DNA of 22,449 bases, from NCBI GenBank assembly GCA_910588925.1, contig CAJURV010000033.1:1-22449 (forward strand). The letters run 5' to 3'. This DNA comes from an uncultured Rikenellaceae bacterium. GTDB lineage: Bacteria > Bacteroidota > Bacteroidia > Bacteroidales > Rikenellaceae. Position 1 is the stretch's first letter. Every line of letters begins with the position of its first letter. This document shows positions 58 to 22,140 of this stretch, one piece after another. Made by a program: the position numbers and the translations under genes. The notes under the pieces were generated by a model, which was given only the letters and a program-made list of their open reading frames with translations, was not told the origin of the DNA and did no database searches.

Positions 58-88
58 TCTGCAATTAAGCGAACGAATATTCTTCAGA

Positions 89-138
89 CTGGCGAGACGG
101 TAAGATACTATAAAACACACTGAAGGTATGCGCATTAA
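89..138 (+). repeat. Repeat unit I (copy at window start), fused directly to element A
   Basis: ctggcgagacggtaagatactataaaacacactgaaggtatgcgcattaa. It is followed immediately by cattcGGCACGAGGG, which is the start of the ~300-nt element. Confidence 0.85.
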
Positions 139-146
139 ACAACACC

Positions 147-460: not shown

Positions 461-542
461 CTCATGCACTGTCCGGCAAGATTCAACAAAAAAATAGCCG
501 GAAGAAATTCCCTCCCGACTATTAACTATCTTCTATCGGTAA

Positions 543-3298: not shown

Positions 3299-3303
3299 TT
3301 TCG

Positions 3304-5406
3304 TTAATCGAAGAGCAACTCGAACTCGTCGATGTAGAGTGTGCTCCCCTCGCCGCCTATGAAGTCGGCGCCGTACACGCTCGATGTGGCTACGAACACT
3401 ATGTGCGTAGGCTTGATAGTGTTACCCTCGCCGTCTTTCTCAAGGGTGTATTTTATGTCGAAACCACCCTCGGTATATTCAGTGACGTTATCGGCCGTCT
3501 TGAACTCGCCGTAACCCACCACTACAGGGTTCGACGGACGTTCGGAGGTGCCGTCGGGCCACTTCTCGAGACTGATATACACGTGCATTCGGTCAGTCTC
3601 GCCTATGTGCGCATCACCCCTGTTAATGGTAGTAGGCGTATATTTGTAGAAGAAACGCAACCCCGAAGGACGACCGGTATAGGGACGACCGAAATGCGGA
3701 CTATCCTTAGGACTGGATAGGTTGGTCTCAAAATATCCGGTGAAGAGGTTTCCGGCCGCAAAAGTCTTTACGACTACGGCATTGACCCACAGCGACTGCA
3801 TACGTACTCCCCGGCCCTTATATGCTTCCGGCTCGTCTACAGGCGCGGTATTGGAATTGGTCACGATGGTCACTCCGGAGTTACCGGTATCCCAATACTG
3901 ATCCACTCCGTCACCCCACGGATTCCATGTCTTACCGCTCTGGCTCCACGAATCCATATTGAGGTTGGGAATAAGCACGATGTTCTCGGTAGTGAAGCTG
4001 ACCTCGTTGCCCTCTATATCGGCGGAGATCGGACGCACCCTGTATCTGGTATCCGGCTCCAACCCGCGTACGGTAGCGGTAAAGTTCTTACCGTCTATGG
4101 TTATGTCGCTCTCGGGCAAAACGGTCCACGTCTCGTCTGCATCCTTGCGATACTCGAACGTGAGCCCCTCGGGCTGCATACCGGACGTCCACTCGGCCTC
4201 CACGAGAGCGTATTTGGCGAACGCCTCCACCCTCCTGAGGGCAGTGTTGGCATTGGACGAACGTACATTTAGACACACCGTCTGCTCTACTAACTGGCAA
4301 TGGCTGTCGAGCATCATAAGAGTGATATTGTGTTCGCCCGTCTTCATCCCGGCAGTCATACCGCTGAAGTCGATGAAGCCGGAAGAGGTGCCGATACCTC
4401 CCCATCTGAGACCTATGGCATTGAGCGCCGCTACCGTGGCCTCGCCGGCGGTGGTGAGGTTTATGAACTCGGGAAGCCCCTGCGCCACCAGCGACTTATC
4501 GTAGTGAGTGACGTAGAGCAGATCGATACCGGCCTCGGCCTCCACATCTACGCGTGCCGGTACGCTCTCGCCGAACTCAATGAGCGTGAAGCCGTCCATG
4601 TCGAGGTCCGAAGACGAGAACCGCCCCATAGGGCAACGCCCCGGAGTTATCACTATATCGTGGTCGATATCGTCGGTGTTCGGGTCGACGGATATGGACG
4701 AGTGTATGCCGCCGTCGGTTATCTCGCCGCTCTCCGACACCTTGAATGTGAGTATGTAATGCTCTCTGGCCTTTACTCCGGTGATGGTCTTGCGCATCTT
4801 GTAAACAGTCCCCTGCTTGTTGACGAGATTCAATTCCCATGTCAACGAGCCCGGATCCTTGAAATAGCCGGAACGTATCTCCTCCTCCGAGAAAGTAAGC
4901 GAAGCCTTATTGCGGTTATTCTTAACGACAGCCTTATAATAGCTGAACGCCTCGGTGACGCTATGGTCGAAACGCACGCTCACCTTTACGTTGGCTATGC
5001 GGCAAACGAGATTAACCGTCGTAACCTTACCGGTCCTTATCTCGAACGTCTCGCGCCCTACCAGATACGGACTCTCCCAATCGTCGACATCCTTGCCGTT
5101 GGTGGCCACCGCCGTGTAGGTGCCGTTATCCAGCTCTATGACGTCGGGCATATCGTTGCTGTCTTCGAACGACATCACCGCATCGCCCTTCTCATCGAGG
5201 ATCTCCACACGATAAGTGTCCGGATCGGCGGCGTAAGAGACACGTTCCACTACGGATACATCCGAAGTGATACCCTTTATATACAACCGGCCTTTGTTAC
5301 CCACCGTATGCACCGTCGGATCATTGGTACACGAGGCGCACCACACGCACACCAGCGCGGTGATCAGAAGCGCCACACGGCGTCTTATATTGTCGAACGA
5401 TCTCAT
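3304..5406 (-). CDS. Large surface lipoprotein: DUF4493-like N-domain + FN3-like + PCMD-like C-domain (paralog 2)
   Basis: 700 aa. Signal peptide with lipobox (LVCVWCASC). Its N-terminal domain is homologous to the N-termini of the 416-aa and 723-aa ORFs (…NGTYTAVATNGKD…SPYLVGRETFEIRTGKVTTVNLVCRIANVKVSV). An FN3-like motif (TRYRVRPISADIEGNEVSFTT) is followed by a PCMD-like C-terminus (FGRPYTGRP…KPTHIVFVATSSVYG…GSTLYIDEFELLFD). Confidence 0.8.
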   Translation of the reverse strand: MRSFDNIRRRVALLITALVCVWCASCTNDPTVHTVGNKGRLYIKGITSDVSVVERVSYAADPDTYRVEILDEKGDAVMSFEDSNDMPDVIELDNGTYTAVATNGKDVDDWESPYLVGRETFEIRTGKVTTVNLVCRIANVKVSVRFDHSVTEAFSYYKAVVKNNRNKASLTFSEEEIRSGYFKDPGSLTWELNLVNKQGTVYKMRKTITGVKAREHYILTFKVSESGEITDGGIHSSISVDPNTDDIDHDIVITPGRCPMGRFSSSDLDMDGFTLIEFGESVPARVDVEAEAGIDLLYVTHYDKSLVAQGLPEFINLTTAGEATVAALNAIGLRWGGIGTSSGFIDFSGMTAGMKTGEHNITLMMLDSHCQLVEQTVCLNVRSSNANTALRRVEAFAKYALVEAEWTSGMQPEGLTFEYRKDADETWTVLPESDITIDGKNFTATVRGLEPDTRYRVRPISADIEGNEVSFTTENIVLIPNLNMDSWSQSGKTWNPWGDGVDQYWDTGNSGVTIVTNSNTAPVDEPEAYKGRGVRMQSLWVNAVVVKTFAAGNLFTGYFETNLSSPKDSPHFGRPYTGRPSGLRFFYKYTPTTINRGDAHIGETDRMHVYISLEKWPDGTSERPSNPVVVGYGEFKTADNVTEYTEGGFDIKYTLEKDGEGNTIKPTHIVFVATSSVYGADFIGGEGSTLYIDEFELLFD

Positions 5407-5490
5407 TATGATACTCTATTCGTTAATAACCCGAAGCCTTGGCTGACACGTACATGCGCCGCACCGCAGACTCCGAAAAGCCACGCGAGC

Positions 5491-6741
5491 TTAGTCCACC
5501 CTATTGATGGTAAGCGTAGCATTAGCCTCTTCGCCCTTGGCATCCACCAGTCTGATGTGGAATTTATGAACGTTTACGTCGAGCATACTCATGAACGCCC
5601 CAACCGAGAACGATGCGCTGGTAGCTCCAGCGATGGGATCTTCGCCTATAAGACCGAGACCCACGAAACCCTCCTTGAGGTTATCGTCGAGATTAGCTAT
5701 GTCGAAGCTGACGGGAATATTGAAGCTACCGAGTATATCTTCTGTCAGGTACGGCGAATCTATCTCCACGAACAGGTTGGCTATACCCTCCGGAGCGGCG
5801 AAATTAACCACTACCGATGCGCTCGAAGCCTGTGCCGTATTGAACACTAACGGGTTTGATATATTGAAACCTTTACCTTTTATGGTGGGCGCACTACCAT
5901 GCACATCGTCGTCCCACGGATTGTCGATATCGCCGAAATCGCTGCCGTCACCGTCGTCGCCACCCTCCTCGGGCACCGAAACGATATGGTCTTTGTCCGT
6001 CATCGAACCGTCTATCTTGATATTGAAATCGGCCTCGCCCACGCCCATGGCGCTGACATGGAAACGATGCAGCTGGTTGGCCTCGGTCTCGTCTATCATT
6101 ATAGTGTAGGTAAGGAGGCTACCTGTCTTCTTACTGAAACCCTTGGCGGTGACGCTGAGCGGACCCACCGAGAAGAAACCGTACCTCTCCGCACCGTCCG
6201 GCGTGAACACCAATGCGCTCTTTTCAGCACCGGCGTTAGCTTTGGCTATGGTGAGGGTACCGCCGTCGAGCTGCGATGCGAAGCTCTCGTCGAAATCGAC
6301 ATGCACCGCCACGTTATGCAGCTTGCAGAGCAGGTCTACTTCGTTGAGCTGACCGTCGTAAACGCCTATGCGCTCCTCGCCCTTGAAATGAGGACTGTCG
6401 AAACCGGCCAGCTTGACATTGCCGCTCTCGGCCGTTATGGTATAGCTGCCTTTGGCAATCTCCACAACCGGGGGCATATCCGCGTAACGCTCCCATGCGT
6501 AGAGAGCGGCACCGGTGGCGTTATCGGTGAGCGTCACCCTGAAATTATCTATGTCGGCCAATGCGGCGATGGCGTTCTCCTCCTCGGTGGCATAAGTTAC
6601 TATATTGACCCCCTCCGAAGAGAGACCTATCCTAAGGCTAAGACCGTGATCCCCGTCGGGATGCGACATCTCGTCGGTACAAGAGTATATGGATGCTACC
6701 CCTGCCATCACGGCGAATGCGTATGTAAAAATCTTTTTCAT
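5491..6741 (-). CDS. Lipoprotein with DUF4493-like N-domain, an acidic linker and no PCMD domain
   Basis: 416 aa. N-terminus MKKIFTYAFAVMAGVASIYSC. The N-domain motif (GSYTITAESGNVKLAGFDSPHFKGEERIGVYDGQLNEVDLLCKLHNVAV) aligns with the N-domains of the 700-aa and 723-aa paralogs. An acidic low-complexity linker is present (EEGGDDGDGSDFGDIDNPWDDD). Same strand and operon. Confidence 0.75.
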   Translation of the reverse strand: MKKIFTYAFAVMAGVASIYSCTDEMSHPDGDHGLSLRIGLSSEGVNIVTYATEEENAIAALADIDNFRVTLTDNATGAALYAWERYADMPPVVEIAKGSYTITAESGNVKLAGFDSPHFKGEERIGVYDGQLNEVDLLCKLHNVAVHVDFDESFASQLDGGTLTIAKANAGAEKSALVFTPDGAERYGFFSVGPLSVTAKGFSKKTGSLLTYTIMIDETEANQLHRFHVSAMGVGEADFNIKIDGSMTDKDHIVSVPEEGGDDGDGSDFGDIDNPWDDDVHGSAPTIKGKGFNISNPLVFNTAQASSASVVVNFAAPEGIANLFVEIDSPYLTEDILGSFNIPVSFDIANLDDNLKEGFVGLGLIGEDPIAGATSASFSVGAFMSMLDVNVHKFHIRLVDAKGEEANATLTINRVD

Positions 6742-6803
6742 AGTCGTTATATTTTAACGAAATATTTCATGAGGCTCTTGACGGTATCTGTCGAGAAAGC
6801 CCA

Positions 6804-8975
6804 TTAATCCTTTATCTCCGTATATATGAGTTCCACATTATCGACAGTGAGTACATTGCCGATGTATTTGCTGTCTTTGTAGCCCTGAAATGCACCCGCA
6901 GAACCTTTCACTGGATTCACGGACGGGCTGGCAGAAGAGGACGACACGAAAGCTATCTTTATGTGCGTGGTTTTCAAGCGCCTATTATCATAATCGAACT
7001 TAAGTGTCACAGTTTTAAAGTCACCGGCAGGAGTCTTTGCCACATCGGTATCCACCTGCGCACGTCCCAACTCGTTGACCGTACCGTCGGCGGCCCTGTG
7101 CTCCACTATGGCGTATGCGTCGAAGCTCTCGCCGTTTATCTGTGCGAATTTATACGCGAACTTCATTCCCTCGGGACGCGACGGGAACTGACGACCCATG
7201 TTTTCGGTACGACCGGCCAAATCGTAATCGCCTATGAACAACATGCCCGGGGTTATATTTTTCTTTATGCCGTCGGCACCAAATGGGAATGTCGACCCTC
7301 TACCCCAGTTGACTGTGCTTATCTCAGCCGCAAGACCGCTGACACCCTGTGCCGAGCGCGTGCCGGAATATTGGCAATAATAATTCGCCGTACCGGATCT
7401 GTCGCTGGTCGTCAACGCATTGCGCGTATCCCAATATTTGCTTGACGGGTCGTTATAATCGTAAGGGAATACTTCGAATATCTCTATGTTCATACCCGAA
7501 TTTTTGCCGTAGCACATCTGCTCGCTCCACCTCTCGAAGCCGGCATCGGGCACCTGCGCCGCCGTCTCCGTGGTAATGTCGATAGGTTCGCCGAAAGTGT
7601 GACCGTTATAAGCCATTCTCACCCTATAAGAGGTGTTGGGCGCGAAACCCCACGATTTAAGATCGACTCTGTCGCCATCCTCGCTTACAGTACGGCTCTC
7701 GGACAGATCTTCCCATCTGCCGTTTCGGTATATCTGCGTGGAGAACTTGGCAGGATTGGCATCGGCGACGGTGGCCCCGGTCTCTATGTGGGTGGCCCAT
7801 GCGGCGCCCTCGAACGGAAGCCATTCGAACGTAGCCCCGTTGGTTTGAGCCGTGTACACGTCGCTATCTACGCTCTGCCCCAAACCGTCGGTAACCCTCA
7901 GAGAGAAAGCGTGTTCGCCCGCTTCGAGCAAGCCGAGTGTACCGCTCAGATCGACCGTGCCGGAGATATTGTCGGTCATGTCGTCCCATTTCAGAGAGTC
8001 GCGCCGAACTATATTTTTGGTCTGCGTATCTATAGTGAGCAGGTCGAATTCGGCAGGCCATCCGCGTCCGAGCAACGTGGGAGAGTTAACCTTGACTATG
8101 CACTCGCGTATCTGCCCCGGAGCGAATATACCGATGCGGGCATCGTGCGAGAAGCCGTCGGTGTAGGTCACCCTCTTGTCGGCGCCGAAACCTGTGGCCG
8201 TATAGACGGGCGCGGGCTTGGGCGTCATTAACTTGGGTATCTCGAAGACAAGCTCCTTGTCGTCGGTGGAGAGATCTTTGGTTATATCGAGCGAAAAAGA
8301 GCCGTTCTCGCTACGCAAAAAGAGCGTTATATGATCGCCCGGAGCCACATCCTTAATGGTGGGGGGAATATAGACCTTGTCCTCGCCGTCGGCATTGGTG
8401 TAAGAGATGCGGAAACGCACGTCGGCAGGGGGAGCGAATGCCGAACGCTCCTCGTCCGAAGCGAAAGTAAGACGCTGTTCGGAGGTGTAGAGCAAAACGC
8501 TGTAGTCGCTATGTGCAGACTTGAAATCGTCCTCGGCGACCACGGATATGCACACGTTACGGAGCTTTGCCGTGACGGTGACGGGCGTGACCTGTCCGGC
8601 CTTTATCTCCACCGGAGTCTCGCCGTAATAATAGGGTTTGGCAAAGCCTACTTTGGTAGAATCGCCGTAGAAAGCGACCACTTTATGGTTACCGCTACGC
8701 ACCTTGCCGTTACCGATAAGGTCGGAATAACGATTCCATTTCTTAATGAGCGTCTCGCCGGAATATACCAGAAGTCTGAAATTGCCGAGAGTGGTGCCCC
8801 ACGGGTCTATCGCCGCATTAAGATCGCTCACCTCCCCTGAAGAATAAGAGACCAGAGACAATCCTATCTCGCCGTCGAGACCCTCTTTCTCTTGACCGCC
8901 GTTCTCGAACTGACTGCATCCTGCAAAGACCAAGGCCAGAAACGACAGCGATATCAAAGTAAATTTTTTATCCAT
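6804..8975 (-). CDS. Large surface lipoprotein, first gene of operon (paralog 3): DUF4493-like N-domain + FN3-like + divergent PCMD-like C-domain
   Basis: 723 aa. N-terminus MDKKFTLISLSFLALVFAGCSQFENGG has a canonical lipobox followed by a polar/acidic stretch, typical of surface-exposed Bacteroidetes lipoproteins. The N-domain is homologous to those of the 416-aa and 700-aa ORFs. An FN3-like motif (TSYRVRMAYNGHTFGEPIDITT) is present. The C-terminus (RQFPSRPEGMKFAYKF…KTTHIKIAFVSSSSASP…GNVLTVDNVELIY) is a diverged PCMD-like domain. Confidence 0.75.
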   Translation of the reverse strand: MDKKFTLISLSFLALVFAGCSQFENGGQEKEGLDGEIGLSLVSYSSGEVSDLNAAIDPWGTTLGNFRLLVYSGETLIKKWNRYSDLIGNGKVRSGNHKVVAFYGDSTKVGFAKPYYYGETPVEIKAGQVTPVTVTAKLRNVCISVVAEDDFKSAHSDYSVLLYTSEQRLTFASDEERSAFAPPADVRFRISYTNADGEDKVYIPPTIKDVAPGDHITLFLRSENGSFSLDITKDLSTDDKELVFEIPKLMTPKPAPVYTATGFGADKRVTYTDGFSHDARIGIFAPGQIRECIVKVNSPTLLGRGWPAEFDLLTIDTQTKNIVRRDSLKWDDMTDNISGTVDLSGTLGLLEAGEHAFSLRVTDGLGQSVDSDVYTAQTNGATFEWLPFEGAAWATHIETGATVADANPAKFSTQIYRNGRWEDLSESRTVSEDGDRVDLKSWGFAPNTSYRVRMAYNGHTFGEPIDITTETAAQVPDAGFERWSEQMCYGKNSGMNIEIFEVFPYDYNDPSSKYWDTRNALTTSDRSGTANYYCQYSGTRSAQGVSGLAAEISTVNWGRGSTFPFGADGIKKNITPGMLFIGDYDLAGRTENMGRQFPSRPEGMKFAYKFAQINGESFDAYAIVEHRAADGTVNELGRAQVDTDVAKTPAGDFKTVTLKFDYDNRRLKTTHIKIAFVSSSSASPSVNPVKGSAGAFQGYKDSKYIGNVLTVDNVELIYTEIKD

Positions 8976-9314
8976 ATCACAACCCTTTCATACATTCGTG
9001 CGCCGTATCGAGCAAAGCGACGCATAAACTCTTTTTCAAGGAGCGAATGCTCTTTAGGTTATCTCATTCAGGCAGACGTGTACACACTGACTGCCAACTA
9101 CTTCGACACACCGCTATCACAACGGCGACACAGGTCGAAGCGATTTTCCACTAATAATGGAATTTGACAAATGTATAAACTTTTCCTTTCCGCACAAAAT
9201 TTTCAGCCTTTTTTCGACATCCGTACCCCGCCCCGGAAACATAACCGCAGAAGAATACCGACGAAAGAACGACCATTTTATTCGAATGAAAATGCAACTT
9301 GGGAGAAAATTTAT

Positions 9315-9322
9315 TACCTTTG
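9315..9322 (+). promoter_or_regulatory. Candidate Bacteroidetes sigma-A -7 element (TAccTTTG) upstream of aspA
   Basis: tacctttg matches the TAnnTTTG consensus about 85 nt upstream of the aspA ATG. I found no clean -33 TTTG. Approximate coordinates. Confidence 0.35.
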
Positions 9323-9407
9323 TAGGTGTTTACTTTTTAGTCCCGATGATCGGGATACCGCCACTAATGGCGATTACTCGGGAATCGATCATTAAATTAT
9401 TATAGTT

Positions 9408-10847
9408 ATGGCAATAACAGACCAGAAATTATCGGGTCAGACGAGAGTCGAACACGACCTGCTCGGCGACAAGAACATTCCCGTCGAATACTATTTCGGC
9501 GTACAGACCATGCGTGCCATGGAGAACTTCCACATCAGCCGCGTAAGGCTCAACATGTACCCCGTTTTCATCAAAGCGCTGGCTATGGTGAAACAGGCTG
9601 CAGCGGAAGCTAACTGCGAGCTCGGCATACTCAAGCCCGAAATACGCGACGCCATCGTGGCCGCTTGTAAAGAGGTGCGCGAAGGCAAGTTCGACGACCA
9701 TTTCGTAGTAGACATGGTACAAGGCGGCGCCGGCACATCTACCAACATGAATGCCAACGAGGTGATCGCCAACCGTGCCCTCGAGCTGATGGGCCACAAG
9801 AAAGGCGAATACAAATACTGCCATCCCAACAACCACGTCAACCTGTCGCAGTCTACGAATGACGCCTATCCCACATCGGTGCGCGTGGCTCTTCTCAACC
9901 GCACCCGCGACCTTGTCGACGCACTCAAGGTATTGGTAGAGGCATTCCGTGCCAAAGGCGAAGAGTTCGCCGATGTCATCAAGATGGGCCGCACTCAGAT
10001 GCAGGACGCAGTGCCCATGACCCTCGGACAGGAGTTCGGGGCATACGCTGCCACCCTGTCTGAAGAGATAGAACGCCTCGAGAACAACGTACGTCTGTTC
10101 CTCGAAGTAAACATGGGTGCCACTGCCATCGGTACCGGTATCAACTCCGATCCCGACTACACCCCCACCTGTATCAAATATCTATGCGAGATCACCGGCA
10201 TGCCTATGGTAGCCGCCGGCAACATGATCGAAGCGACCAACGATACCGGCGCGTTCATCATGTACTCATCGGCTGTCAAACGTCTGGCCGTCAAGCTATC
10301 TAAGATAAGCAACGACCTTCGCTTGCTCTCGTCAGGTCCTCGCACCGGTTTCAACGAGATCAACCTGCCTCCCATGCAACCCGGTTCTACCATCATGCCC
10401 GGCAAGGTCAACCCCGTCATACCCGAGGTAGTGAGCCAGATAGCATTCAAGGTGATAGGCAACGACCTCACGGTAACGATGGCGGTAGAGGCCGCACAGC
10501 TCGAGCTTAACGCTATGGAGCCCATCATTGTGCAGGCACTCTTCGAAAACATCGAAATGCTTATCAACGGCATGAACACACTCCGCGAAAGATGTATCGT
10601 AGGCATCACCGCCAACAAAGAGCGTTGCCGCCAAATGGTTTACAACAGCATAGGTTTGGTTACGGCTCTCAACCCCTACCTCGGTTACGAAGTATCTACC
10701 GAGCTGGCGAAAGAGGCCCTCGAAAACAATAAAGGCGTGTACGACCTGGTTCTCGAAAAAGGGCTCATGTCGAAAGAAGAACTCGACAACGTACTCCGCC
10801 CCGAGAACATGGTAAAACCCCGCAAGTTCATCGGCAAGAACGTTTAA
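9408..10847 (+). CDS. aspA: Aspartate ammonia-lyase (aspartase)
   Basis: 479 aa. This is a fumarase/aspartase-family protein with the GSTIMPGKVNP signature. It aligns along its whole length with E. coli AspA as I recall it (DLRLLSSGPRTGFNEINLP, FKVIGNDLTVTMA, GITANKERC, YNSIGLVTALNP). It is clearly closer to aspartase than to FumC. Confidence 0.9.
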   Translation: MAITDQKLSGQTRVEHDLLGDKNIPVEYYFGVQTMRAMENFHISRVRLNMYPVFIKALAMVKQAAAEANCELGILKPEIRDAIVAACKEVREGKFDDHFVVDMVQGGAGTSTNMNANEVIANRALELMGHKKGEYKYCHPNNHVNLSQSTNDAYPTSVRVALLNRTRDLVDALKVLVEAFRAKGEEFADVIKMGRTQMQDAVPMTLGQEFGAYAATLSEEIERLENNVRLFLEVNMGATAIGTGINSDPDYTPTCIKYLCEITGMPMVAAGNMIEATNDTGAFIMYSSAVKRLAVKLSKISNDLRLLSSGPRTGFNEINLPPMQPGSTIMPGKVNPVIPEVVSQIAFKVIGNDLTVTMAVEAAQLELNAMEPIIVQALFENIEMLINGMNTLRERCIVGITANKERCRQMVYNSIGLVTALNPYLGYEVSTELAKEALENNKGVYDLVLEKGLMSKEELDNVLRPENMVKPRKFIGKNV

Positions 10848-10863
10848 CATCTTTATACATATA

Positions 10864-10915
10864 AATATCGGAGGCTGCATCCTTAAAGAAGATGCAGCCT
10901 CCGATATTTATATGT
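10864..10915. terminator. Intrinsic terminator after aspA
   Basis: Perfect ~17-bp stem aatATCGGAGGCTGCATC / GATGCAGCCTCCGATatt with a 9-nt loop, followed by ttatatgtat, starting 17 nt after the aspA stop. Approximate coordinates. Confidence 0.75.
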
Positions 10916-11137
10916 ATATGGTTGTACCTCCCGGCAGCCACTTGGTGAAGGTGATTTGTCGAGTGGCAAAGTACCAGAAACAATGGACTTTCAGAAGTAC
11001 ACGATATGCAGTAAAGCAAAAAAAATAAAGATGAACACTTTAGTACATCATGCTACTAATTATATACATAATGCGACTCATGAAAATCTAATTATGTTAT
11101 AATTTCGAGACAAAAGGTTCGGCATTTACGCTACCGA

Positions 11138-11188
11138 CTGGCGAGACGATAAAAACACCTCACAACTTCCCAAAGCTATGCGCATTGA
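11138..11188 (+). repeat. Repeat unit I (copy a): CTGGCGAGACG…(C)TATGCGCATTGA
   Basis: A ~50-nt unit beginning CTGGCGAGACG(A/G)TAA and ending with the palindromic core ATGCGCAT plus a T(T/G)A flank. Copies occur at 89-138, 11138-11188, 11271-11320 and 22091-22140. Confidence 0.85.
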
Positions 11189-11270
11189 CTGAAACGCTCT
11201 CGCTCCGTATCAGGAGCGCAACACAAGACTTGCGCTTCTTTAGAAGTGCAAAGTATAGTACACAATTCCG

Positions 11271-11320
11271 CTGGCGAGACGATAAGATACTACAAAATAC
11301 ACTGAAAGTATGCGCATTAA
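11271..11320 (+). repeat. Repeat unit I (copy b)
   Basis: ctggcgagacgataagatactacaaaatacactgaaagtatgcgcattaa is about 85% identical to the copies at 89-138 and 22091-22140. Confidence 0.85.
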
Positions 11321-11549
11321 CAAATACATCCATGCGGCACGGGGTGCCGCTCCGCAATAACCTCCACGAATTAACAGAACAGAGGTTGGGAAACTCCCCG
11401 GCGAAACAAAAAAGACATCGGAGCTTAACGACATGCGCATTAACCGCAAGTCGCAGGCATGCTAGCCCGTGTACACAACTAAAGACCGCAGGGCGCCGAA
11501 GTTTTTTAGACCTCAAAAATCGTCGATCGCGGTCGTGTGCCTCGGAGCG
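11321..11549 (+). repeat. Repeat unit II (hairpin-rich ~230-nt module), unoccupied version
   Basis: Colinear with 22141-22449 at roughly 80% identity. Shared segments include catgcGGCACgggGTGCCgctccgc (7-bp hairpin), acatgcgcattaaccgcaagtcgcaggcatgc, gaccgcagggcgccgaa and tttttagacctcaaaaatcgtcgatcgcgg. This copy lacks the 67-nt insert present in the 22141-22449 copy. Confidence 0.8.
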
Positions 11550-12035
11550 TACTCGATGTACGTGAGGATGGCTCACGAACGGGATCGGCGATTTTTGTGG
11601 CTAAAAAGCGACGGAAACAGCCCCACGTTAACCGAACCTCGCGCACACAAACCGACAATTCATGCGTTCAGAGATCGCGTACTTCCTAAACTTCACTAAA
11701 ACTTCCTACACGTACGACCCGAACCTATAAAATCCCTAACGCGTCCCCGAAGGGGATGCACCTGCACGAGCAATACAAAAACGTCCCCAACAAAAACAAA
11801 CGGTACTAAAGCGGAAACGATATGAACTTCCAACTACACTAAACACAACTGCGAAAGACAAGGCACAGAAAGCAACCTAACAACGACCGACCAAAACGCC
11901 GTAAGGCGTACACGCCCGAGCGAAGTGAGGGGCATAAATACGAACAAGCAGATTCAAACACGCCGTAAGGCGTACTAATGTTAGCAAAAAGCCCGAGCGA
12001 AGCGAGAGCAATCAAACACAACTTCCGCCGTTAAA

Positions 12036-12320
12036 TCCCGAGGCACGAGGGATGAGCGGGCCGGAGCCTCCCCCAACGGAGGCCCGCTTATACGGTTGGT
12101 TATTTATAGTATTTATCGCCTTTTTATATAAAATCACTCTCTCGAATGTCACACTCGAGCGGTCCCCCGCATGCTCCGGCCCTTGTGACGCCGGGCAAGG
12201 TATCGCTAAAATCCATGTAAACCACATAATAATAGGAGTCGTGTCAATTCCATCCGGCGAAAAGTTCAGCTAATGCACATATCGTCAAGATAGAGAAAAT
12301 TCACCGCCCCGCAAACCGTC
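12036..12320 (+). repeat. Conserved ~300-nt stem-rich element, copy B
   Basis: See copy A. Same block order and orientation. A different AT-rich insertion lies between blocks 2 and 3. The element ends about 35 nt before the pgi terminator hairpin. Confidence 0.8.
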
Positions 12321-12352
12321 TGACGAAGACACGAAAGCCCTCATTCTCACCC

Positions 12353-12385
12353 AATAATAAAAAAGGGGGTACCTGCCCCCTATCC
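12353..12385 (-). terminator. Intrinsic terminator of the gpsA-pgi operon
   Basis: On the minus strand, GGGGGcaggtaCCCCC is followed by TTTTTTATTATT, immediately after the pgi stop codon. Confidence 0.75.
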
Positions 12386-12389
12386 TTAA

Positions 12390-13748
12390 CTACCTCCCGG
12401 CTATCCGTTTCTTGAGCTTCTCGCCCTCCTCCTCATAACCGGGCTTATTTAGAAGTGCGAACATATTCTTCTTATACTCCTCCACACCCGGCTGATCGAA
12501 CGGATTGACCTCGATAGCATAACCGCTGATGCCCACCGCTTTTTCGAACATATATATAAGCATACCTATGGTCTCGGCACTTATAGAATCCATCTCCACG
12601 GTTATGTTAGGCACTCCGCCGTCCACATGCGCGAGCATGGTACCCAACTCCGCCATACGGTTAACTTCGCTAAGACGTTTGCCTGCCAGGAAATTGAGCC
12701 CGTCGAGATTGGCCCTGTCGCTTTTTATGACGACGCGCCCCGCAGGTTTACCAACGCTTATGACCGTCTCGAACATTATACGTTCGCCCTGCTGTATGTA
12801 TTGCCCCATGGAGTGCAGGTCGGTGGTGAATACCGCGCTGTGGGGCATGATACCCTTGCCCTCCTTACCCTCGCTCTCACCGTAAAGTTGCTTCCACCAC
12901 TCGGCCATATACTGCAACTTGGGCTCGAACGCCACCAACAGCTCCACCTTCTTGCCCAACTTGGTATAGAGGGCATAACGGGCCGCCGCGTATTGCATTG
13001 CAGGATTATCCTCGAAAGGCACGTCTACAGCCGTAGCCTTCTCCATAGCCGCCGCACCTTTGACCAAACGGGCTATATCTATGCCCGCCACAGCGAGGGG
13101 AAGAAGCCCTACCGGAGTCAGAACGGAGAAACGTCCGCCCACATTGTCGGGAATAACGTAACTTTTATACCCCTCCTTGTCGCAAAGCGTACGCAACGCC
13201 CCGCGCGAACTGTCGGTCACAGCCATTATGCGCGAAGCGGCCTCCTTGCGTCCGTACCTCTTCTCAAGCTCCTCGCGCAACAGACGGAAAGCTATGGCCG
13301 GCTCGGTAGTAGTCCCCGACTTGGATATGACTATCAACGAAAACGACCGCTCCTTAATGAATGCGAGCAACTCGGCCATATAATCTTCGCTGATGTTATG
13401 TCCTGCGAAAAGCACCAACGGCTGACCCTCACTACTATCGAAGGCCGCAAACGTTGGGGTCAAAGCCTCCATTACGGCCTTGGCGCCGAGATAAGAGCCG
13501 CCTATGCCTATCACCACTACCACCTCCGAACAAGCACGCAAGGTATCGGCACACTCCATAATATCGGCGATCTGCTTCTTGCCTATCGACGAGGGAAGTG
13601 TCACCCAGCCGAGAAAATCGCTTCCCCTGCCGTCGCCTTTATGAACGGTACGATTGCATCGCTCCATAAGAGGAGCCAAAGCCGCTATGTCTTTTTTGGA
13701 CACGAATTGCGTGATTCTGTCTAACGATATTCTGACCTTTGTTATCAT
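12390..13748 (-). CDS. pgi: Glucose-6-phosphate isomerase
   Basis: 452 aa. It has the N-terminal architecture typical of Bacteroidetes Pgi (…[15 protein letters not shown]…) with a SIS domain and a PGI family fold. Length and motifs are typical. Confidence 0.85.
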
Positions 13749-13813
13749 AAGTTATGTTTTATTTATCGGATCGAGCCTGAAACCCAGTGCAAATATCGGG
13801 CCTACCCGACCAA

Positions 13814-14821
13814 TCACCTCAACTGCCCGGTGAGCGTCTTTATCTCCGCCGCCGCCGACCTCTTCATATACAGTATGCGATAGACGGTGTCGGCTATGGG
13901 CATGACCACCTTGCGCGACCTGTTGATCTGCTCTATGCAATACGATGCGTAATACCCCTCGGCCACCATGTTCATCTCTATCTGCGCGCTACGCACCGAA
14001 TAGCCTTTGCCTATCATCATACCGAAACTGCGGTTACGGCTGAACTGCGAATAGGAGGTCACCAACAGGTCGCCCAAATAGGCGGAGGTATTGGTATCGC
14101 GCTCCGACGGATAGGTGCTCTCGAGAAAATGGTTCATCTCTTTGGCCGCGTTGGCTATGAGCACGCTCTGGAAATTGTCGCCGTAACCCAGCCCGTGACA
14201 AATACCTACGGCTATGGCATATATGTTTTTAAGCACGGCGGCATACTCGGTGCCGTATATATCAGTGGCCGTGTTGGTATTTATGTATGGAGTGGAGAAC
14301 TTGCCGGCCAGCATGCGTGCGTTGTCCTCGCTCTTGCACACGAGATTGAGATACGACAGACGCTCGAGAGCCACCTCCTCGGCATGACAAGGCCCGGTGA
14401 TGATGCCTATACGGTCGAACGGCAGCCCGTAATGTTCATTGACATACTCGGCAACGGTGACATAACTGTCCGGAATTATACCCTTGATGGCCGAAAGCAC
14501 GAACTTATCCTCCAGCGACACGGTCAGGGGCTCGAGGGTCTTACCGAGGAATGCCGAGGGAGTGGCCAACACCACTATATCGGCCCACGAGACAATCTCG
14601 TTAACATCGCCCGATATATGCAACTTGCCGGTATCGAAATGTACACCGCTAAGATATTTGGGATTGTTGCCGTGCTCGAGTATATGACCGGCGACCTCGC
14701 CGTTACGTATATGCCAGCCCACGACAGGCTCGTTCTCCAACAACATCTTGACGAGCGCGGTAGCCCAACTTCCGTAACCTATCACCGCCACACGTGCGGA
14801 TTCGTCTATTCTGAAACTCAT
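13814..14821 (-). CDS. gpsA: NAD(P)H-dependent glycerol-3-phosphate dehydrogenase
   Basis: The N-terminal Rossmann motif VAVIGYGSWATAL and overall similarity to the GpsA family. The supplied track begins at a TTG at 14845 (MCAKKIIVM-). The first ATG, at 14821 (MSFRIDESARVAVIGYGSW), gives the canonical N-terminus. The gene lies 65 nt upstream of pgi on the same strand, so it is probably co-transcribed. Confidence 0.85.
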   Translation of the reverse strand: MSFRIDESARVAVIGYGSWATALVKMLLENEPVVGWHIRNGEVAGHILEHGNNPKYLSGVHFDTGKLHISGDVNEIVSWADIVVLATPSAFLGKTLEPLTVSLEDKFVLSAIKGIIPDSYVTVAEYVNEHYGLPFDRIGIITGPCHAEEVALERLSYLNLVCKSEDNARMLAGKFSTPYINTNTATDIYGTEYAAVLKNIYAIAVGICHGLGYGDNFQSVLIANAAKEMNHFLESTYPSERDTNTSAYLGDLLVTSYSQFSRNRSFGMMIGKGYSVRSAQIEMNMVAEGYYASYCIEQINRSRKVVMPIADTVYRILYMKRSAAAEIKTLTGQLR

Positions 14822-15142
14822 TACAATAATCTTTTTTGCACACAATGCTCTCGAACACAGGGATTATTAGCCCATGCTATCGGAAACACCGGATACATAC
14901 AACACGGACCGCGGGAAAGATCTTGCGAAAATATCGCAGGCCCCTCTACGCTAAACTATTCTCCCTACAAAACAGAAAGCCCCAAGGTCCGAATTGGTTT
15001 TAAAGATAGGTATTTTATTCCAAGCATGCAAATCGCCAGCTCCGGACGTTGCCTTTCCGACACTTTCGTATGAATAACCGCCTTATTTTCACAGACATCT
15101 CAACCACCGTAGACAAAGCCAGAGCACGATCGCTTTTGCGCT

Positions 15143-15307
15143 CGGCTTATTCGTATCTTTGGCTGTGCCTTAGATACTCCGCCTCGACAAACCCAAACAA
15201 GTTTGCTTTTGTATTCGGCTTATTCGTATCTTTGACTTCGTCTTAGATACTGCGCCTCAACAAACCCAAACAAGTTTGTTTTTGTATTCGGCTTATTCGT
15301 ATCTTTG
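15143..15307 (+). repeat. 2.3 tandem copies of a 73-bp repeat, each carrying TTTG…TATCTTTG promoter-like motifs
   Basis: The unit cggcttattcgTATCTTTG-(n)-cttagatact-cgcctc-acaaacccaaacaaGTTTGyttttgtatt occurs at 15143-15215, 15216-15288 and 15289-15307 (partial). Each unit carries a TAnnTTTG -7 motif about 21 nt downstream of a TTTG, which is the Bacteroidetes sigma-A architecture. It lies ~130 nt upstream of the hydrolase ATG. The first 13 nt (tgcgctcggctta) are shared with the small hairpin element family. Confidence 0.7.
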
Positions 15308-15348
15308 CACCTGCATGCAACGGAAAAACGTTCGCTTCGATGCAGATG

Positions 15349-15414
15349 TTTTCTCGCCCCGGCAATCGAAACTTCGTTTCATTGCGCTCGGCTCATCGAA
15401 AACGTCAGCTTTAT
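15349..15414 (-). repeat. Small hairpin element copy (reverse orientation) in the hydrolase 5' region
   Basis: gttttctcgccccggcaatcgaaacttcgtttcattgcgctcggctcatcgaaaacg is the reverse complement of the 22329-22395 copy at about 90% identity. The internal hairpin GAAAC-UUCG-GUUUC has a UUCG tetraloop. Confidence 0.75.
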
Positions 15415-15437
15415 TTCGCAGTCGCATCAAAACAGAT

Positions 15438-16757
15438 ATGAACCGTATTTTAGCCATTCTTTTACCGCTCGTGGCGATATGTTCCGCCCGGGCCGCCGAC
15501 CCCGCCGATCCGGCCGCTCTGCGCAAAGCGACCGAACGTAAAATAGAGAACTACCTTATGCAAGGCGTCGCAGGACGGTATTTCCCCGGAGGGCAGTTGG
15601 TGATAGGGAACAAAAGCGGCGTCATATACTCTACGAGCGTAGGTTCGTTCGACTACAGCGGAGGGCGCAAAGTAACCGACACCGACCTGTACGACCTTGC
15701 CTCGGTAACCAAAGTGATGTCCACGACCTTGGCCGTCATGACCCTTTACGGAGAGGGGCGCATAAAGCTCTCCGACAGGTTGGGGAGCCTGGTTCCGCGA
15801 TATAGCGGCAGCGCCGTAGCCGACATAACCGTACGCGACATGCTACGCCACACCTCCGGCATGAAACCGGTGATATACGTATGCGAACTGACATGCAGGC
15901 CTATAGCCGACTCCGTAAAGCTATTGAGCGCCAAACGCGACTCTCTGCACACCGTGGCCGTAGACGCCTCCACATACGTGGTAGACACATTCGTTTACGA
16001 CAACCGATACGTAAGCGCCACCCCCGACAGTACCACCCTGTTCGACCTCTCGCCGAGGTTATGGGTGCGTCGGTCCCTGCTCTCGGCCATCGACTCTGCC
16101 GTAGTAGCCTCCTATCAACCTGAACGACGCGGACGTTACCGATACAGCTGCCTCAACTTCTATCTGCTGCAACAAGCCATAGAGGAGCTTAGCGGAGAGA
16201 CGCTCGACAAATTCGCAGGTTCGATATATCGACGCATGGGGCTCACCCGCATAGGCTACAAACCGTTGGAGTGGAGCGACATAGGCCAGATAGCCCCCAC
16301 CGAATACGACCTGCTCATGCGACACGACACCGTACGCGGCTATGTACACGACGAGATGAGCGCCTCGCTCGGCGGGGTATGCGGCAATGCGGGACTATTC
16401 GCCGACGGACTCGACGTAGCCTCGCTATGTCAGATGTTCCTGTCCGGCGGCAGATGGAACGGCATGCAGATAATAAAACCGGAGGTGTTGCGTCTGTTCA
16501 CCTCGGAACAGATGTCTCCCTCGAGCCGTGTCACCCGCGGACTCGGTTTCGACAAGCTGAAAACGGAGCCTTACAGCACAGCCTCTTACGGCCACACGGG
16601 CTTCACTGGCACCTATTTCTGGTGCGACCCGTCCATAGATCTTTATGCGGTATTGCTAACCAACGGCGTCTACCCGTCGCGAATAGACAAAACCATAGGC
16701 GGCAGTTATCGCAAACGGATATGGGAACTGGCCAAAGAGTTGAGGAAAATACAATAA
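15438..16757 (+). CDS. Serine hydrolase (class C beta-lactamase/esterase family), exported
   Basis: The start is reassigned to the ATG at 15438 (MNRILAILLPLVAICSARA signal peptide). The 5' extension in the track runs through the tandem repeats and is spurious. The protein carries the S-x-x-K active-site motif (ASVTK) and C-terminal HTGFTGT, both typical of the beta-lactamase/transpeptidase fold. Confidence 0.8.
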   Translation: MNRILAILLPLVAICSARAADPADPAALRKATERKIENYLMQGVAGRYFPGGQLVIGNKSGVIYSTSVGSFDYSGGRKVTDTDLYDLASVTKVMSTTLAVMTLYGEGRIKLSDRLGSLVPRYSGSAVADITVRDMLRHTSGMKPVIYVCELTCRPIADSVKLLSAKRDSLHTVAVDASTYVVDTFVYDNRYVSATPDSTTLFDLSPRLWVRRSLLSAIDSAVVASYQPERRGRYRYSCLNFYLLQQAIEELSGETLDKFAGSIYRRMGLTRIGYKPLEWSDIGQIAPTEYDLLMRHDTVRGYVHDEMSASLGGVCGNAGLFADGLDVASLCQMFLSGGRWNGMQIIKPEVLRLFTSEQMSPSSRVTRGLGFDKLKTEPYSTASYGHTGFTGTYFWCDPSIDLYAVLLTNGVYPSRIDKTIGGSYRKRIWELAKELRKIQ

Positions 16758-16823
16758 ATAACCGCAATGCGCGTTTTATCTGCAAACACCCGGCCGACGA
16801 GTCGGGATTAAAATTTATCGCCT

Positions 16824-17003
16824 ATGATAGAACTCTCCTCAGGTAAAGAAAATGACGAATCCATAGCGGTGTATGCCGGCGAAGACGAACTGATCGAACA
16901 ACTGGTGTACAAAGGCGACCGTCAGCTCGCCATGATAGACGGGCTGTTGCACGACCTTTTCTCCGACGACGGATTCATGCTTTCGGACGACATGTCCGCA
17001 TAA
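16824..17003 (+). CDS. Hypothetical small acidic protein (59 aa); below the ORF-track size cutoff
   Basis: ATG at 16824 and TAA at 17001. The product is MIELSSGKENDESIAVYAGEDELIEQLVYKGDRQLAMIDGLLHDLFSDDGFMLSDDMSA. It is on the same strand as both neighbours, and its codon usage matches them. The competing antisense ORF 16839-17057 has no better support. This is a weak call. Confidence 0.3.
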   Translation: MIELSSGKENDESIAVYAGEDELIEQLVYKGDRQLAMIDGLLHDLFSDDGFMLSDDMSA

Positions 17004-17097
17004 TGCGGCATTAAAGACCGCCTCGGATAAGCGCAATGCTTTTCCGGGGCGGATCATTGTCGTTTACGGCCAACATCTATCCAACCCCGACTTACAA

Positions 17098-17940
17098 GTG
17101 ACAGATTTCATCTCCGACATATCGCGCTTCGCATTCTTGCAGAACGCACTTACGGCATCGTTGTTATGCGGCATAGTGTGCGGCATAACCGGCAGTTATA
17201 TCGTAGCCCGCAGGCTGGTATTCCTTAGCGGAGGCATCACCCACGCCTCTTTCGGCGGCATAGGGATGGCCTGCTATCTCGGATTCGACCCGCTTTTGGG
17301 GGCATTGCTCTTCTCCGTGGCCTCGGCTTTAGGGCTCGAGCGTTTCATTGCGACAGGTAAAGTACGCGAAGACTCAGCCATAGGCGTACTGTGGGCATTG
17401 GGGATGGCGGCCGGTATAATATTCATATTCCTGACACCCGGATACACCCCAAACCTAATGAGCTTTCTTTTCGGGTCGATACTCACCATAACTACGCCTC
17501 TGCTGTGGTGGAGCGCGCTGTTGGCGGCCTCTCTGCTGATCCTGTTCGGGCTGTGGGGTAGAAACATAATGTACGTGGCATTCGACGCAGGATTCTCCGA
17601 GACACAGAAGATGCCGGTACGTGCCGTAAACGCCGTAATGCTGGCCGTGGTGGCCGCCGCCGTAGTTATCACCATACGTTTGGTAGGTGTGATGCTACTG
17701 GTATCGCTCTTCACCATACCGCCGCTCGTTTCGGCCTCTGTTGCCCGACGTTTCAGCCGCATAACCGCCGGTGCTGTCGCAGTGGCGGTGGCAGGACTCG
17801 TTTCCGGGCTTTTCATCAGCTACCACACCCAGCTTCCGCCGGGGGCCTCGTCGGTAATCGTACTCATCGTTCTATACCTCATCGCAAGGCTACTGAAAAC
17901 AGCTTACACAAAGAGACGTTTACTACGGGCCAAAGCGTAA
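17098..17940 (+). CDS. Metal (Zn/Mn) ABC transporter permease, ZnuB/MntB (ABC-3) family
   Basis: 280 aa with 7-8 predicted TM helices and the N-terminal motif FLQNALTASLLCGIVCGITGSYIVARRLVFLSGGITHASFGG, typical of ABC-3 permeases. The apparent start codon is GTG. No ATPase or substrate-binding partner gene is adjacent. Confidence 0.75.
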   Translation: MTDFISDISRFAFLQNALTASLLCGIVCGITGSYIVARRLVFLSGGITHASFGGIGMACYLGFDPLLGALLFSVASALGLERFIATGKVREDSAIGVLWALGMAAGIIFIFLTPGYTPNLMSFLFGSILTITTPLLWWSALLAASLLILFGLWGRNIMYVAFDAGFSETQKMPVRAVNAVMLAVVAAAVVITIRLVGVMLLVSLFTIPPLVSASVARRFSRITAGAVAVAVAGLVSGLFISYHTQLPPGASSVIVLIVLYLIARLLKTAYTKRRLLRAKA

Positions 17941-18018
17941 ATCGTCCCGTCCGGTCAACGCTACAAATGCATATGAAGGGCAGTTGACACCAAATATGGC
18001 GATATAAAATACGCCGGA

Positions 18019-18050
18019 TTTGCAACGAAACGAAAAATAGACTATCTTTG
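18019..18050 (+). promoter_or_regulatory. Bacteroidetes sigma-A-type promoter (TTTG-20nt-TATCTTTG) upstream of tRNA-Leu
   Basis: TTTG at ~18019-18022 and TAtcTTTG at ~18043-18050 with a 20-nt spacer, about 70 nt upstream of the tRNA 5' end. Confidence 0.5.
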
Positions 18051-18118
18051 CATAAGATAAATTGCCGTGGCAATAGGAAACGCCGTCGCTATCGGCTCGA
18101 TTATCTGACTTTAATACT

Positions 18119-18200
18119 GCGGATGTGGTGTAATTGGTAGCCACGCCAGACTTAGGATCTGGTGGCGCAAGCCGTGGGGGTTCGAGTCCCTTCATCCGCA
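18119..18200 (+). tRNA. tRNA-Leu (anticodon TAG)
   Basis: Perfect 7-bp acceptor stem GCGGATG/CATCCGC with discriminator A. Anticodon stem-loop CCAGA-CTTAGGA-TCTGG. A long (13-nt) variable arm marks it as type II. The T-loop is TTCGAGT. CCA is not encoded. Confidence 0.85.
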
Positions 18201-18210
18201 CAAAACGAAC

Positions 18211-18248
18211 CGAGGTGTCATTTGCTTTATGACACCTCGGTTTTTTAT
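18211..18248 (+). terminator. Intrinsic terminator after tRNA-Leu
   Basis: CGAGGTGTCAT-ttgcttt-ATGACACCTCG followed by GTTTTTTAT. Confidence 0.8.
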
Positions 18249-18360
18249 ATTCGATAGATCGCACAATATCACACGCGTTTTTCGCTTCGGGCAATCGAAA
18301 CCCATTTTAGTTGTACAAACCTCTCGTCACATATAATTTTAAACGTTGAATTTCATTCTA

Positions 18361-18420
18361 CATTTTCTCGCCTCGGCATAACCAAATTTCATTTGCTTCT
18401 GCTCTCGGCTTACCGAAAAC
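18361..18420 (-). repeat. Small hairpin element copy (reverse orientation)
   Basis: cattttctcgcctcggcataaccaaatttcatttgcttctgctctcggcttaccgaaaac is the reverse complement of positions 1-57 at about 93% identity. Confidence 0.8.
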
Positions 18421-18441
18421 GTTCGTTTTTATGCAGAAGTT

Positions 18442-18497
18442 TTCGATAGACCGGGCGCAATGAAATTAAGTGTCGATTGTATTCGGTTTATCGAAAA
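18442..18497 (+). repeat. Small hairpin element copy (+ orientation), diverged; forms an inverted pair with 18361-18420
   Basis: ttcgatagaccgggcgcaatgaaattaagtgtcgattgtattcggtttatcgaaaa. The two copies face each other across a ~20-nt spacer (gttcgtttttatgcagaagtt). Confidence 0.6.
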
Positions 18498-21982: not shown

Positions 21983-22090
21983 GTGATTTTATTCTAGTGC
22001 CGTAATAAGTTGGGATTTTCTTGTCGGTATTTCATATAGACTATTCAGGGGGGACGTTGTTTTGTTGTTCGACAAAGACTATGTTTTCGG

Positions 22091-22140
22091 TTGGCGAGAC
22101 GGAAAGATACTATAAAACACACTAAAGGTATGCGCATTAG
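22091..22140 (+). repeat. Repeat unit I (copy c)
   Basis: ttggcgagacggaaagatactataaaacacactaaaggtatgcgcattag. Confidence 0.85.

Follow-up and report, generated by a model that had tools for sequence, protein, structure and literature searches.

The DNA analyzed here (the window) is a 22,449-nt stretch of contig CAJURV010000033.1 from an uncultured gut Rikenellaceae species, and the element in question lies in the spacer between two of its genes, aspA and pgi. The genes are convergent: aspA (9408-10847, + strand) encodes a protein with Lyase_1 and FumaraseC_C domains and pgi (12390-13748, - strand) one with a PGI domain, and 1,542 bp separate them. The island between them corresponds to one copy of a modular repeat, ~1.1 kb long, that encodes no protein and has inverted ends. 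A single full copy occupies 11263-12318, preceded by a 68-nt mini end module at 11138-11205, and across 11138-12318 the modules follow in the order end module I, unit II, C/A-rich tract and element B, all of them non-coding. The repeat does not include the gene terminators, as 10848-11137 and 12319-12389 consist of locus-specific sequence and the terminator hairpins of aspA (10847-10925) and pgi (12364-12381), both of which fall outside it.

In aligned copies, the segment from unit I to the end of B, C/A tract included, forms one unit of ~1.0-1.3 kb. Its boundaries are set by an end module of ~50 nt, made up of a terminal inverted repeat (TIR) with the consensus GTTTKNGGTTGGCGAGACGRT (21-23 nt), ~25 variable nucleotides and then ATGCGCATTA. 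One to three such modules stand in direct orientation on the left, and on the right the module is inverted. The aspA-pgi copy (copy 2) has direct modules at 11138 (I'), 11263 (I) and 11400 (degenerate) and one inverted module at 12271-12316. A first-pass annotation of this DNA had reported unit I twice, and both occurrences were recovered (GGCGAGACGA at 11140 and 11273; ATGCGCATT(G/A) at 11178 and 11310), but it had missed two more, namely the degenerate direct module (11400-11442) and the inverted one. The L066 stretch of the same species carries a 23-nt TIR with 83% complementarity (5774-5796 against 6820-6842); in copy 1 of the window 88-104 pairs with 440-454, and in copy 2 the TIR is degenerate (12302-12316). 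Two short motifs recur within this framework. We counted ATGCGCATTA 8 times in the window compared to 2.1 expected, above all 100 shuffles and with 8 of 8 occurrences inside elements, and GGCACGRGG, a motif located at the start of unit II as well as of B, 3 times compared to 0.4 expected, again above all 100 shuffles.

Reading along the + strand, the mini end module I' (11138-11205) consists of CTGGCGAGACGA, ~25 nt and ATGCGCATTG and is closed by an inverted remnant, GCTCTCGC (11196-11203); this 68-nt module resembles the A1C1-type minimal form of the BOX repeats discussed below. The I'-I spacer (11206-11262) starts with a small hairpin, GCTCC-GTATCA-GGAGC, and is kept in unrelated contexts in L053 and L054, in which the I'-spacer-I arrangement is also found downstream of pdxA and of a peptidase C69 gene, respectively. 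The spacer belongs to the longer left-end variant of the repeat family. Unit I, the left end module proper (11263-11327), carries the TIR …CCGCTGGCGAGACGATAAG and a subterminal ATGCGCATTA at 11310-11319. It is followed by an optional hairpin module (11328-11399) with GCGGCAC-GGG-GTGCCGC (11334-11350) carrying GGCACGGGG and then CTCCGCAATAAC, a module that variant L067 has lost and that L011 and L065 carry in duplicated or extended form, and by the third, degenerate copy of the direct end module (11400-11442), which reads GGCGAAACA, ~25 nt, ATGCGCATTA.

Conservation within the element is highest in the unit II core (11443-11640, + strand). Here a 133-nt imperfect hairpin (11491-11623) has stems that hardly change among 20 dispersed copies, although these copies differ 15-30% elsewhere; its apical loop (11553-11557), by contrast, is hypervariable and has its own sequence in almost every one of them. 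Next comes a C/A-rich, G-poor tract (11601-12035, + strand), which the first-pass annotation had recognized and which is real by skew: over ~11600-11950 the GC skew is -0.24 to -0.45 and the AT skew reaches +0.70. At 80-90% identity between copies, the tract belongs to the repeat and is not spacer. It contains on the + strand a stem CGTAC/GTACG (11678-11682 with 11712-11716), a hairpin GCGTCCCC-GAA-GGGGATGC (11741-11759), two GNRA-loop hairpins ACGCC-GTAA-GGCGT (11896-11909 and 11960-11973) and two hairpins GCCCGAGCGAAG(T/C)GAG… (11914-11933 and 11991-12009). The GNRA-loop pair and the GCCCGAGCGAAG(T/C)GAG pair together constitute an optional 64-nt internal duplication, such that the block is single or double between copies.

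The body of element B (12036-12270, + strand) opens with the hairpin ATCCC-GAGGCACGA-GGGAT (12035-12053), which has GGCACGAGG in its loop, followed by a second hairpin, GCGGGCC…GGCCCGC (12056-12087). B also contains an A/T-rich segment that comes in two alternative versions between copies and a conserved block, GCGGTCCCCCGCAKGCTCCGGCCC, and it is found alone and in tandem arrays as well as within the full element. The right end module (12271-12318, - strand) is an inverted unit I, with TAATGCACAT at 12271-12280, ~22 nt and CACCGCCCCGCAAAC at 12302-12316, and is degenerate in copy 2.

The recurrence of this ordered architecture elsewhere in the window, claimed in the first-pass annotation, was confirmed at 88-454 and from 22083 to the window end, and matches between the three loci bear out both unit II (11322-11600 with 22143-22449, 80-94% identity) and element B (12036-12345 with 155-454). 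Copy 1 (88-454, + strand) is a short form in which unit I (88-138) runs straight into B and the right end, with the junction at GGCACGAGG (155-163); the right end is represented by TAATGCGCAT at 408-417 and CACCGTCTCGCAAAC at 440-454. Copy 3 (22083-22449, + strand) starts with the TIR GTTTTCGGTTGGCGAGACGGAAAG, continues into unit II and runs off the window; in L031 it extends to ~1.04 kb, without a right end.

We found no sign that any of these modules encodes protein. Two mutually antisense open reading frames (ORFs) sit on the island, and neither has a Pfam match. When 12 dispersed copies are compared, their variable columns reveal no periodicity of 3 nt, and of 46 short indels, 45 have lengths not divisible by three. 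The sole database relatives of the + strand ORF are 15 gene calls placed on copies of the same repeat. With no Pfam match and no codon signal, the earlier view that the island has no credible ORF was upheld. Searches with Rfam/Infernal, which had been proposed alongside it, matched no family in the window or in other copies: no Rfam 15 covariance model, including those for group II introns, HEARO/omega RNAs, ROOL and GOLLD, passed the gathering cutoff, whether in the window or across 63 kb of further copies, and a permissive search of 10850-12450 gave nothing beyond chance-level matches up to E=10. The sole Rfam matches were microRNA models on the aspA terminator hairpin, which we took as chance. 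Phage, plasmid (BLAST) and viral-contig collections contained no relative, two viral-contig matches being attributable to chance, and in the literature we found nothing specific on the motifs of the element or on repeat families of Alistipes or Bacteroidales.

The repeat is widely dispersed in its host. We identified 73 instances in 34 genomic contexts, clustered by their flanks and including both orientations, and the genes next to them are unrelated housekeeping genes (QueG, CorC, PdxA, peptidase C69, RecQ, PNP and PEPCK). These instances exclude a local duplication and support the original proposal of a composite multi-copy element distinct from ordinary spacer DNA; the modules are dispersed far beyond the window to which they might have been confined. 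A metagenome scan using a 19-nt probe from the start of B returned 24 loci, 18 of them real and 6 chance occurrences in unrelated high-GC DNA. Two stretches of the same species, L065 and L066, were reached via spurious ORFs on copies. L065 (20 kb) has three long copies and one fragment, L066 (17 kb) has four copies, and both orientations occur. Excluding the copies that led to each stretch, the density is ~1 per 8-14 kb, a value that, by extrapolation, would put the genome total at roughly 100 copies or more. Most short-read contigs with aspA end inside the element, as expected of a high-copy repeat, and the repeat accounts for the break-up of this organism's short-read assemblies on a ~10-kb scale. 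The organism itself is widely sampled, as its aspA protein is indexed in 374 collection blocks. All copies so far lie at gene ends, in spacers, and none lies in a divergent (promoter-promoter) spacer. If the observed density holds genome-wide, the non-coding repeat load of this lineage would be unusual for bacteria, with a copy number comparable to that of Correia or BOX elements and each copy several times longer.

Comparison of strains revealed that the element changes much faster than its surroundings. Whereas aspA and pgi are ~99% identical between strains, the element is just 70-95% identical, making the gene-end spacers with the repeat the fastest-changing parts of the genome. Presence/absence polymorphism, which the first-pass annotation had anticipated for a composite element, exists at the level of modules. 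The copy 1 locus has a full 1-kb form in strains L001, L003 and L036 and a 367-bp form in the window strain, with the short-form junction falling at the GGCACGRGG motif, and in L067 loss of the sequence between two direct ATGCGCATTA motifs has brought unit I up against the internal end-module copy. Tandem B arrays with a period of 364 nt are present in L056 (2.7 copies), L053 and L064. Segments of the L001 copy are nearer to paralogous copies (95% and 91% identity) than to the orthologous copy (88% and 77%), indicating that copies exchange sequence. From these alignments, variants appear to arise via deletion between short direct motifs, formation of tandem B arrays and exchange between copies. 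Dispersed copies are also potential substrates for rearrangement. In the metagenome contig L010 (5115-6967), a pyruvate:ferredoxin oxidoreductase gene takes the place of pgi after aspA and the element, and the B segment is of another subtype; the cause is either rearrangement via the repeat or chimerism in the assembly.

We also searched for the element in relatives of the host. In ~68 kb from taxa with 82-92% identical PGI, the neighboring gene block is kept and there is no copy of the element. A scan of the genome collection with the unit I pattern gave 19 chance matches and one real relative, in the more distant Rikenellaceae metagenome-assembled genome L011, where a copy with 74-83% identity sits at a contig end. 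When we sought an empty aspA-pgi site in relatives via PGI homologs, synteny with aspA was lost and no clean empty site was found. On this distribution, the repeat family appears to be lineage-specific, residing in an uncultured Rikenellaceae species. In a sister taxon with 82% identical PGI (L073 4440-4760 and L074 ~587-615) we observed two B-like hairpin motifs, GGGCCG…CCCCCCGCGGAGGCCCG, then CCCCCGCAGGTTCGGCCC, between ABC-3 and a small downstream gene, a position that spans only 68 nt in the window. To judge by these motifs, B may predate the composite element and have a wider distribution.

The interpretation that we favor, with modest confidence, is a non-autonomous mobile element of the BOX or MITE (miniature inverted-repeat transposable element) kind, enlarged to ~1.0-1.3 kb, whose mobility and mechanism we infer. 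It has the features of a MITE, namely terminal inverted repeats, no coding capacity and many dispersed copies in unrelated sites. Of the options offered in the first-pass annotation, which had paired MITEs with palindrome-associated transposable elements (PATEs) and also listed small RNA (sRNA) gene arrays and recombination or integration sites, the MITE-like one fits best, given the TIRs, the absence of coding capacity and the absence of copies from sister taxa; the hallmarks of a PATE are mostly missing, and so are the proofs of transposition. Because we found no target-site duplication, no empty site for the whole element and no transposase, we do not classify it as a proven MITE.

Several observations weigh against mobility. 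No direct repeat of 2-12 nt flanks the two-ended copies (copy 1, L066_b, L067 and L053), although duplications could have decayed as the copies are old. No filled/empty pair for the whole element was found within the species, and all strains are filled at the three window loci. The cognate transposase for which the first-pass annotation had suggested a search did not appear: among the called genes of ~140 kb of the species there was no transposase, integrase or HUH gene, and the called genes of L011 included no cognate autonomous element. Full copies, at 1.0-1.3 kb, are well above the usual size of bacterial MITEs (<~0.5 kb), and small size is limited to the 68-nt mini module and to forms shortened by deletion (copy 1, 367 bp). 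As copies differ by ~15%, activity may lie far in the past. Gene conversion or a function at the level of the host could account for the near-invariance of the unit II core, which need not mark a transposition signal, and the copy-number estimate is extrapolated from loci that were chosen for containing a copy.

If the element is mobile, a trans-acting enzyme encoded elsewhere would recognize the repeated end modules and would have spread it to roughly 100 copies or more. The direct end modules on the left with one inverted module on the right recall, by analogy, ends with multiple transposase-binding sites: transposases of the IS21, Tn7 and Mu types bind ends that are laid out in this way, with several direct sites on one side and an inverted one opposite. 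The conserved hairpin core would serve as a cis-acting site that is read as the folded + strand. Copies at the three window loci would be old and fixed, evolving mainly by deletion between ATGCGCATTA or GGCACGRGG motifs, tandem duplication of B and gene conversion, as a result of which the island would have become far more variable between strains than the flanking genes. The bipartite end module and the invariant hairpin provide handles for finding the spreading enzyme.

Among known repeat systems, the closest parallels in layout come from BOX elements, which are defined by fixed terminal modules, variable internal modules in a fixed order and minimal forms (PMC3049150). Like boxA-boxBn-boxC of S. 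pneumoniae and the BOX-type repeats of S. suis, the Rikenellaceae element has terminal modules of ~50 nt around a variable internal set in fixed order, exists in minimal forms with end modules only, and is non-coding, intergenic, dispersed and strongly folded if transcribed. It also shares with BOX an apparent past proliferation with few recent insertions (PMC3049150). The element has the BOX-type composite architecture, in the sense of an architectural class and not a family of homologs; the phylum and base composition differ and sequence homology is not expected. In other respects the two diverge. BOX elements measure 67-637 bp compared to ~370 bp (short form) to 1.0-1.3 kb for the Rikenellaceae element, target-site duplications are reported for BOX but none is seen here, and the 133-nt near-invariant hairpin and 300-400-nt C/A tract have no BOX counterpart.

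Similar mosaics are found in Neisseria, where NIMEs are RS blocks flanked by dRS3 inverted repeats and where NIME and Correia elements reach hundreds of copies per genome. The Rikenellaceae repeat resembles them in being a mosaic of blocks split by a short recurring motif, in its location at gene ends and as a substrate for rearrangement. Integrating prophages make use of dRS3 sites, and Correia elements, 100-155 bp in length, have a TA target duplication; by contrast nothing is integrated in the Rikenellaceae element, and the sequences are unrelated. With classical MITEs the element shares terminal inverted repeats, absence of coding capacity, many dispersed copies and mosaic derivatives, and with some MITE families internal tandem repeats; a MITE of Porphyromonas gingivalis contains a minisatellite (PMC4596501), and TIMEs are derived from Tn3 (PMC4133298). 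Classical MITEs have an identified parent insertion sequence or transposon with matching ends as well as target-site duplications, neither of which we found for our element, and are mostly <500 bp. Repetitive extragenic palindromes (REPs), including BIMEs and REPIN-RAYT systems, are likewise high-copy extragenic mosaics that are lineage-specific, vertically persistent, hairpin-forming and located at gene ends. As outlined in one account (PMC2817692), REPs are palindromes of 20-40 nt with a conserved tetranucleotide, tied to a flanked RAYT gene; our element is instead a kilobase unit with bipartite terminal inverted repeats, and no RAYT or Y1 gene occurs in the loci examined. It departs from IS200/IS605-derived PATEs in having TIRs, an internal hairpin and no common tetranucleotide 5' of its left ends, and agrees with them only in the absence of duplication. 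We conclude that the element is a new, unusually large variant within the known class of modular non-autonomous bacterial repeats.

An alternative that we regard as unlikely but a genuine contender is that the modules are cis-acting RNA for a host function at the 3' region of the upstream gene. The + strand hairpins would stabilize or process the mRNA, the C-rich, G-poor unstructured tract would load Rho and end read-through, and the family would have spread as portable gene-end cassettes. The location of all copies at gene ends and their absence from divergent spacers agree with such a role. Relative to upstream genes 10 of 11 copies share an orientation, but this apparent bias is largely forced by convergent spacers; in the informative, co-directional spacers 4 of 5 copies are sense to the genes, a 4:1 bias that is not significant, and copy L065_a is antisense to both of its neighbors. 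Base composition fits as well, with C>G (skew to -0.45) and A>>T on the + strand over ~300 nt. Several aspects of folding point to the + strand: its predicted core helices contain 63 G·U compared to 2 A·C cells, the core folds better as + than as - (alifold -75 vs -65), GNRA-type loops (GUAA) are found on this strand only, and the stems are invariant while the apical loop is hypervariable. However, only a few independent sites underlie the G·U excess and covariation is not significant, with 3 compensatory pairs of 59 and, in a test on two helices, an observed score that was reached by 130 of 500 shuffles. There is no Rfam family match, the Bacteroidetes promoter pattern TTTG-N17-23-TAnnTTTG is absent inside the element, aspA and pgi have strong terminator hairpins of their own outside it, and sister taxa do without the element. 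A scan for sigma-70 promoters and terminators likewise found the pgi terminator and chance-level sites only. Discrete sRNA genes, arranged as the array of structured sRNA genes that the first-pass annotation had considered, are not supported, given the lack of an Rfam match and of a Bacteroidetes-type promoter and the weak covariation; folding of the + strand as such is possible. The end module and hairpin would also serve as handles for tests of a portable gene-end (terminator/stabilizer) cassette role in Bacteroidales.

We consider it distinctly unlikely that the element founds a new class, that of kilobase-sized, protein-free selfish elements. Its members would spread via the near-invariant 133-nt + strand hairpin, as RNA or single-stranded DNA, with the help of a single-copy enzyme encoded elsewhere and not yet linked to any repeat family, would make no target-site duplication and would fill ~5-10% of the genome in a Rikenellaceae lineage that is common in the gut.

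It is improbable that the element belongs to the single-strand HUH/Y1 type, of the REPIN or IS200/IS605-PATE kind, in which a domesticated single-copy tyrosine transposase would recognize a folded + strand DNA hairpin and copy the element without target duplication. The absence of a target-site duplication is as expected for this type, and so is the strong conservation of an imperfect hairpin that tolerates G·T in a strand-specific manner. The repeat is moreover lineage-restricted, seemingly vertically persistent and homogenized in a manner resembling gene conversion; lineage restriction, vertical persistence and homogenization are described for REPIN-RAYT systems (bioRxiv 10.1101/2022.05.22.493013). 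However, the conserved hairpin is internal (11491-11623) and not subterminal, no conserved tetra- or pentanucleotide target lies beside the left ends, no Y1 or HUH gene is seen in the loci examined and the element is 20-30 times the size of a REP. It also has clear terminal inverted repeats with a bipartite end module, which are lacking from IS200/IS605 ends and REPs.

Still less probable is an array of recombination or integration sites, similar to NIME/dRS3 or Xer sites, in which the palindrome-containing ATGCGCATTA would be the crossover site and modules would accumulate between sites. The core of the motif, ATGCGCAT, is an 8-bp palindrome with 8 of 8 window matches inside elements, deletion junctions coincide exactly with repeated motifs, ATGCGCATTA in the case of L067 and GGCACGRGG in that of copy 1, and modules stack in variable number. 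Yet slippage or homologous recombination equally explains deletions between direct repeats of 9-10 nt, no phage, island or gene cassette lies between sites in the 73 instances, no recombinase gene is nearby, and the sequence beside the motif has no dif-like second arm. The first-pass suggestion of a recombination or integration site survives to the extent that the element is a substrate for homologous and short-repeat recombination; there is no evidence of integration there. For lack of a second arm we also dropped a dif/Xer-like reading of GGTATGCGCATTA.

In favor of a family of decayed coding genes, such as transposase or phage pseudogenes, gene callers place ORFs of 119-202 aa on many copies. 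These ORFs vary in length and frame between copies and carry no Pfam domain, and with the lack of codon periodicity and the 45 of 46 frame-breaking indels this reading is effectively refuted. We also rejected a group II intron, bridge RNA, omega RNA or retron, as no model matched, the conserved part is internal and no protein gene is adjacent.

The window contains a second, smaller repeat family of ~57-70 nt, TTCGGTAAGCCGAGCGCA…TGCCGAGGCGAGAAAA, with members at 1-58, 15349-15405 (- strand), 18360-18417 (- strand), 18433-18479 and 22319-22389 (+ strand) and further members at 13833-14032 of L031, where it forms tandem triplets. The member at 22319-22389 interrupts copy 3 at the base of its unit II hairpin and is flanked by a ~10-nt duplication (CGAASTTTTT; CGAACTTTTT at 22319-22328 and CGAAGCTTTTT at 22390-22400). 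Its site is empty in strains L032 and L036 as well as in copy 2, and the two strains provide a clean filled/empty pair for the small repeat. Compared with L001, L032, L033, L036 and L039, the window strain has an inversion of ~18.3 kb (window ~51 to 18420) covering the PCMD/DUF4493 operon, aspA, pgi, gpsA, a beta-lactamase-family gene, ABC-3 and tRNA-Leu. At its junctions in the window strain are the inverted small-repeat copies 1-58 and 18360-18417, which are 95% complementary. Upstream of the beta-lactamase-family gene are three tandem 73-nt units (15116-15307), two of which each contain a perfect Bacteroidetes promoter, TTTG-N-TAnnTTTG (15202-15234 and 15275-15307). As the promoter spacer in these units is an arm of the small repeat, this family may donate or duplicate promoters.

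Two further features of the window were noted. The tRNA-Leu(TAG) gene (18119-18200) is followed by a strain-variable segment, in which L001 (19168-19950), L003 and L004 carry an SduA_C (Shedu-type defense) gene that is absent from the window strain. Finally, a 56-nt repeat with 91% identity is present at 629-684 and 3369-3424, in neighboring PCMD/DUF4493 genes of a five-gene operon (543-8975), and probably reflects paralogy or gene conversion between these genes.

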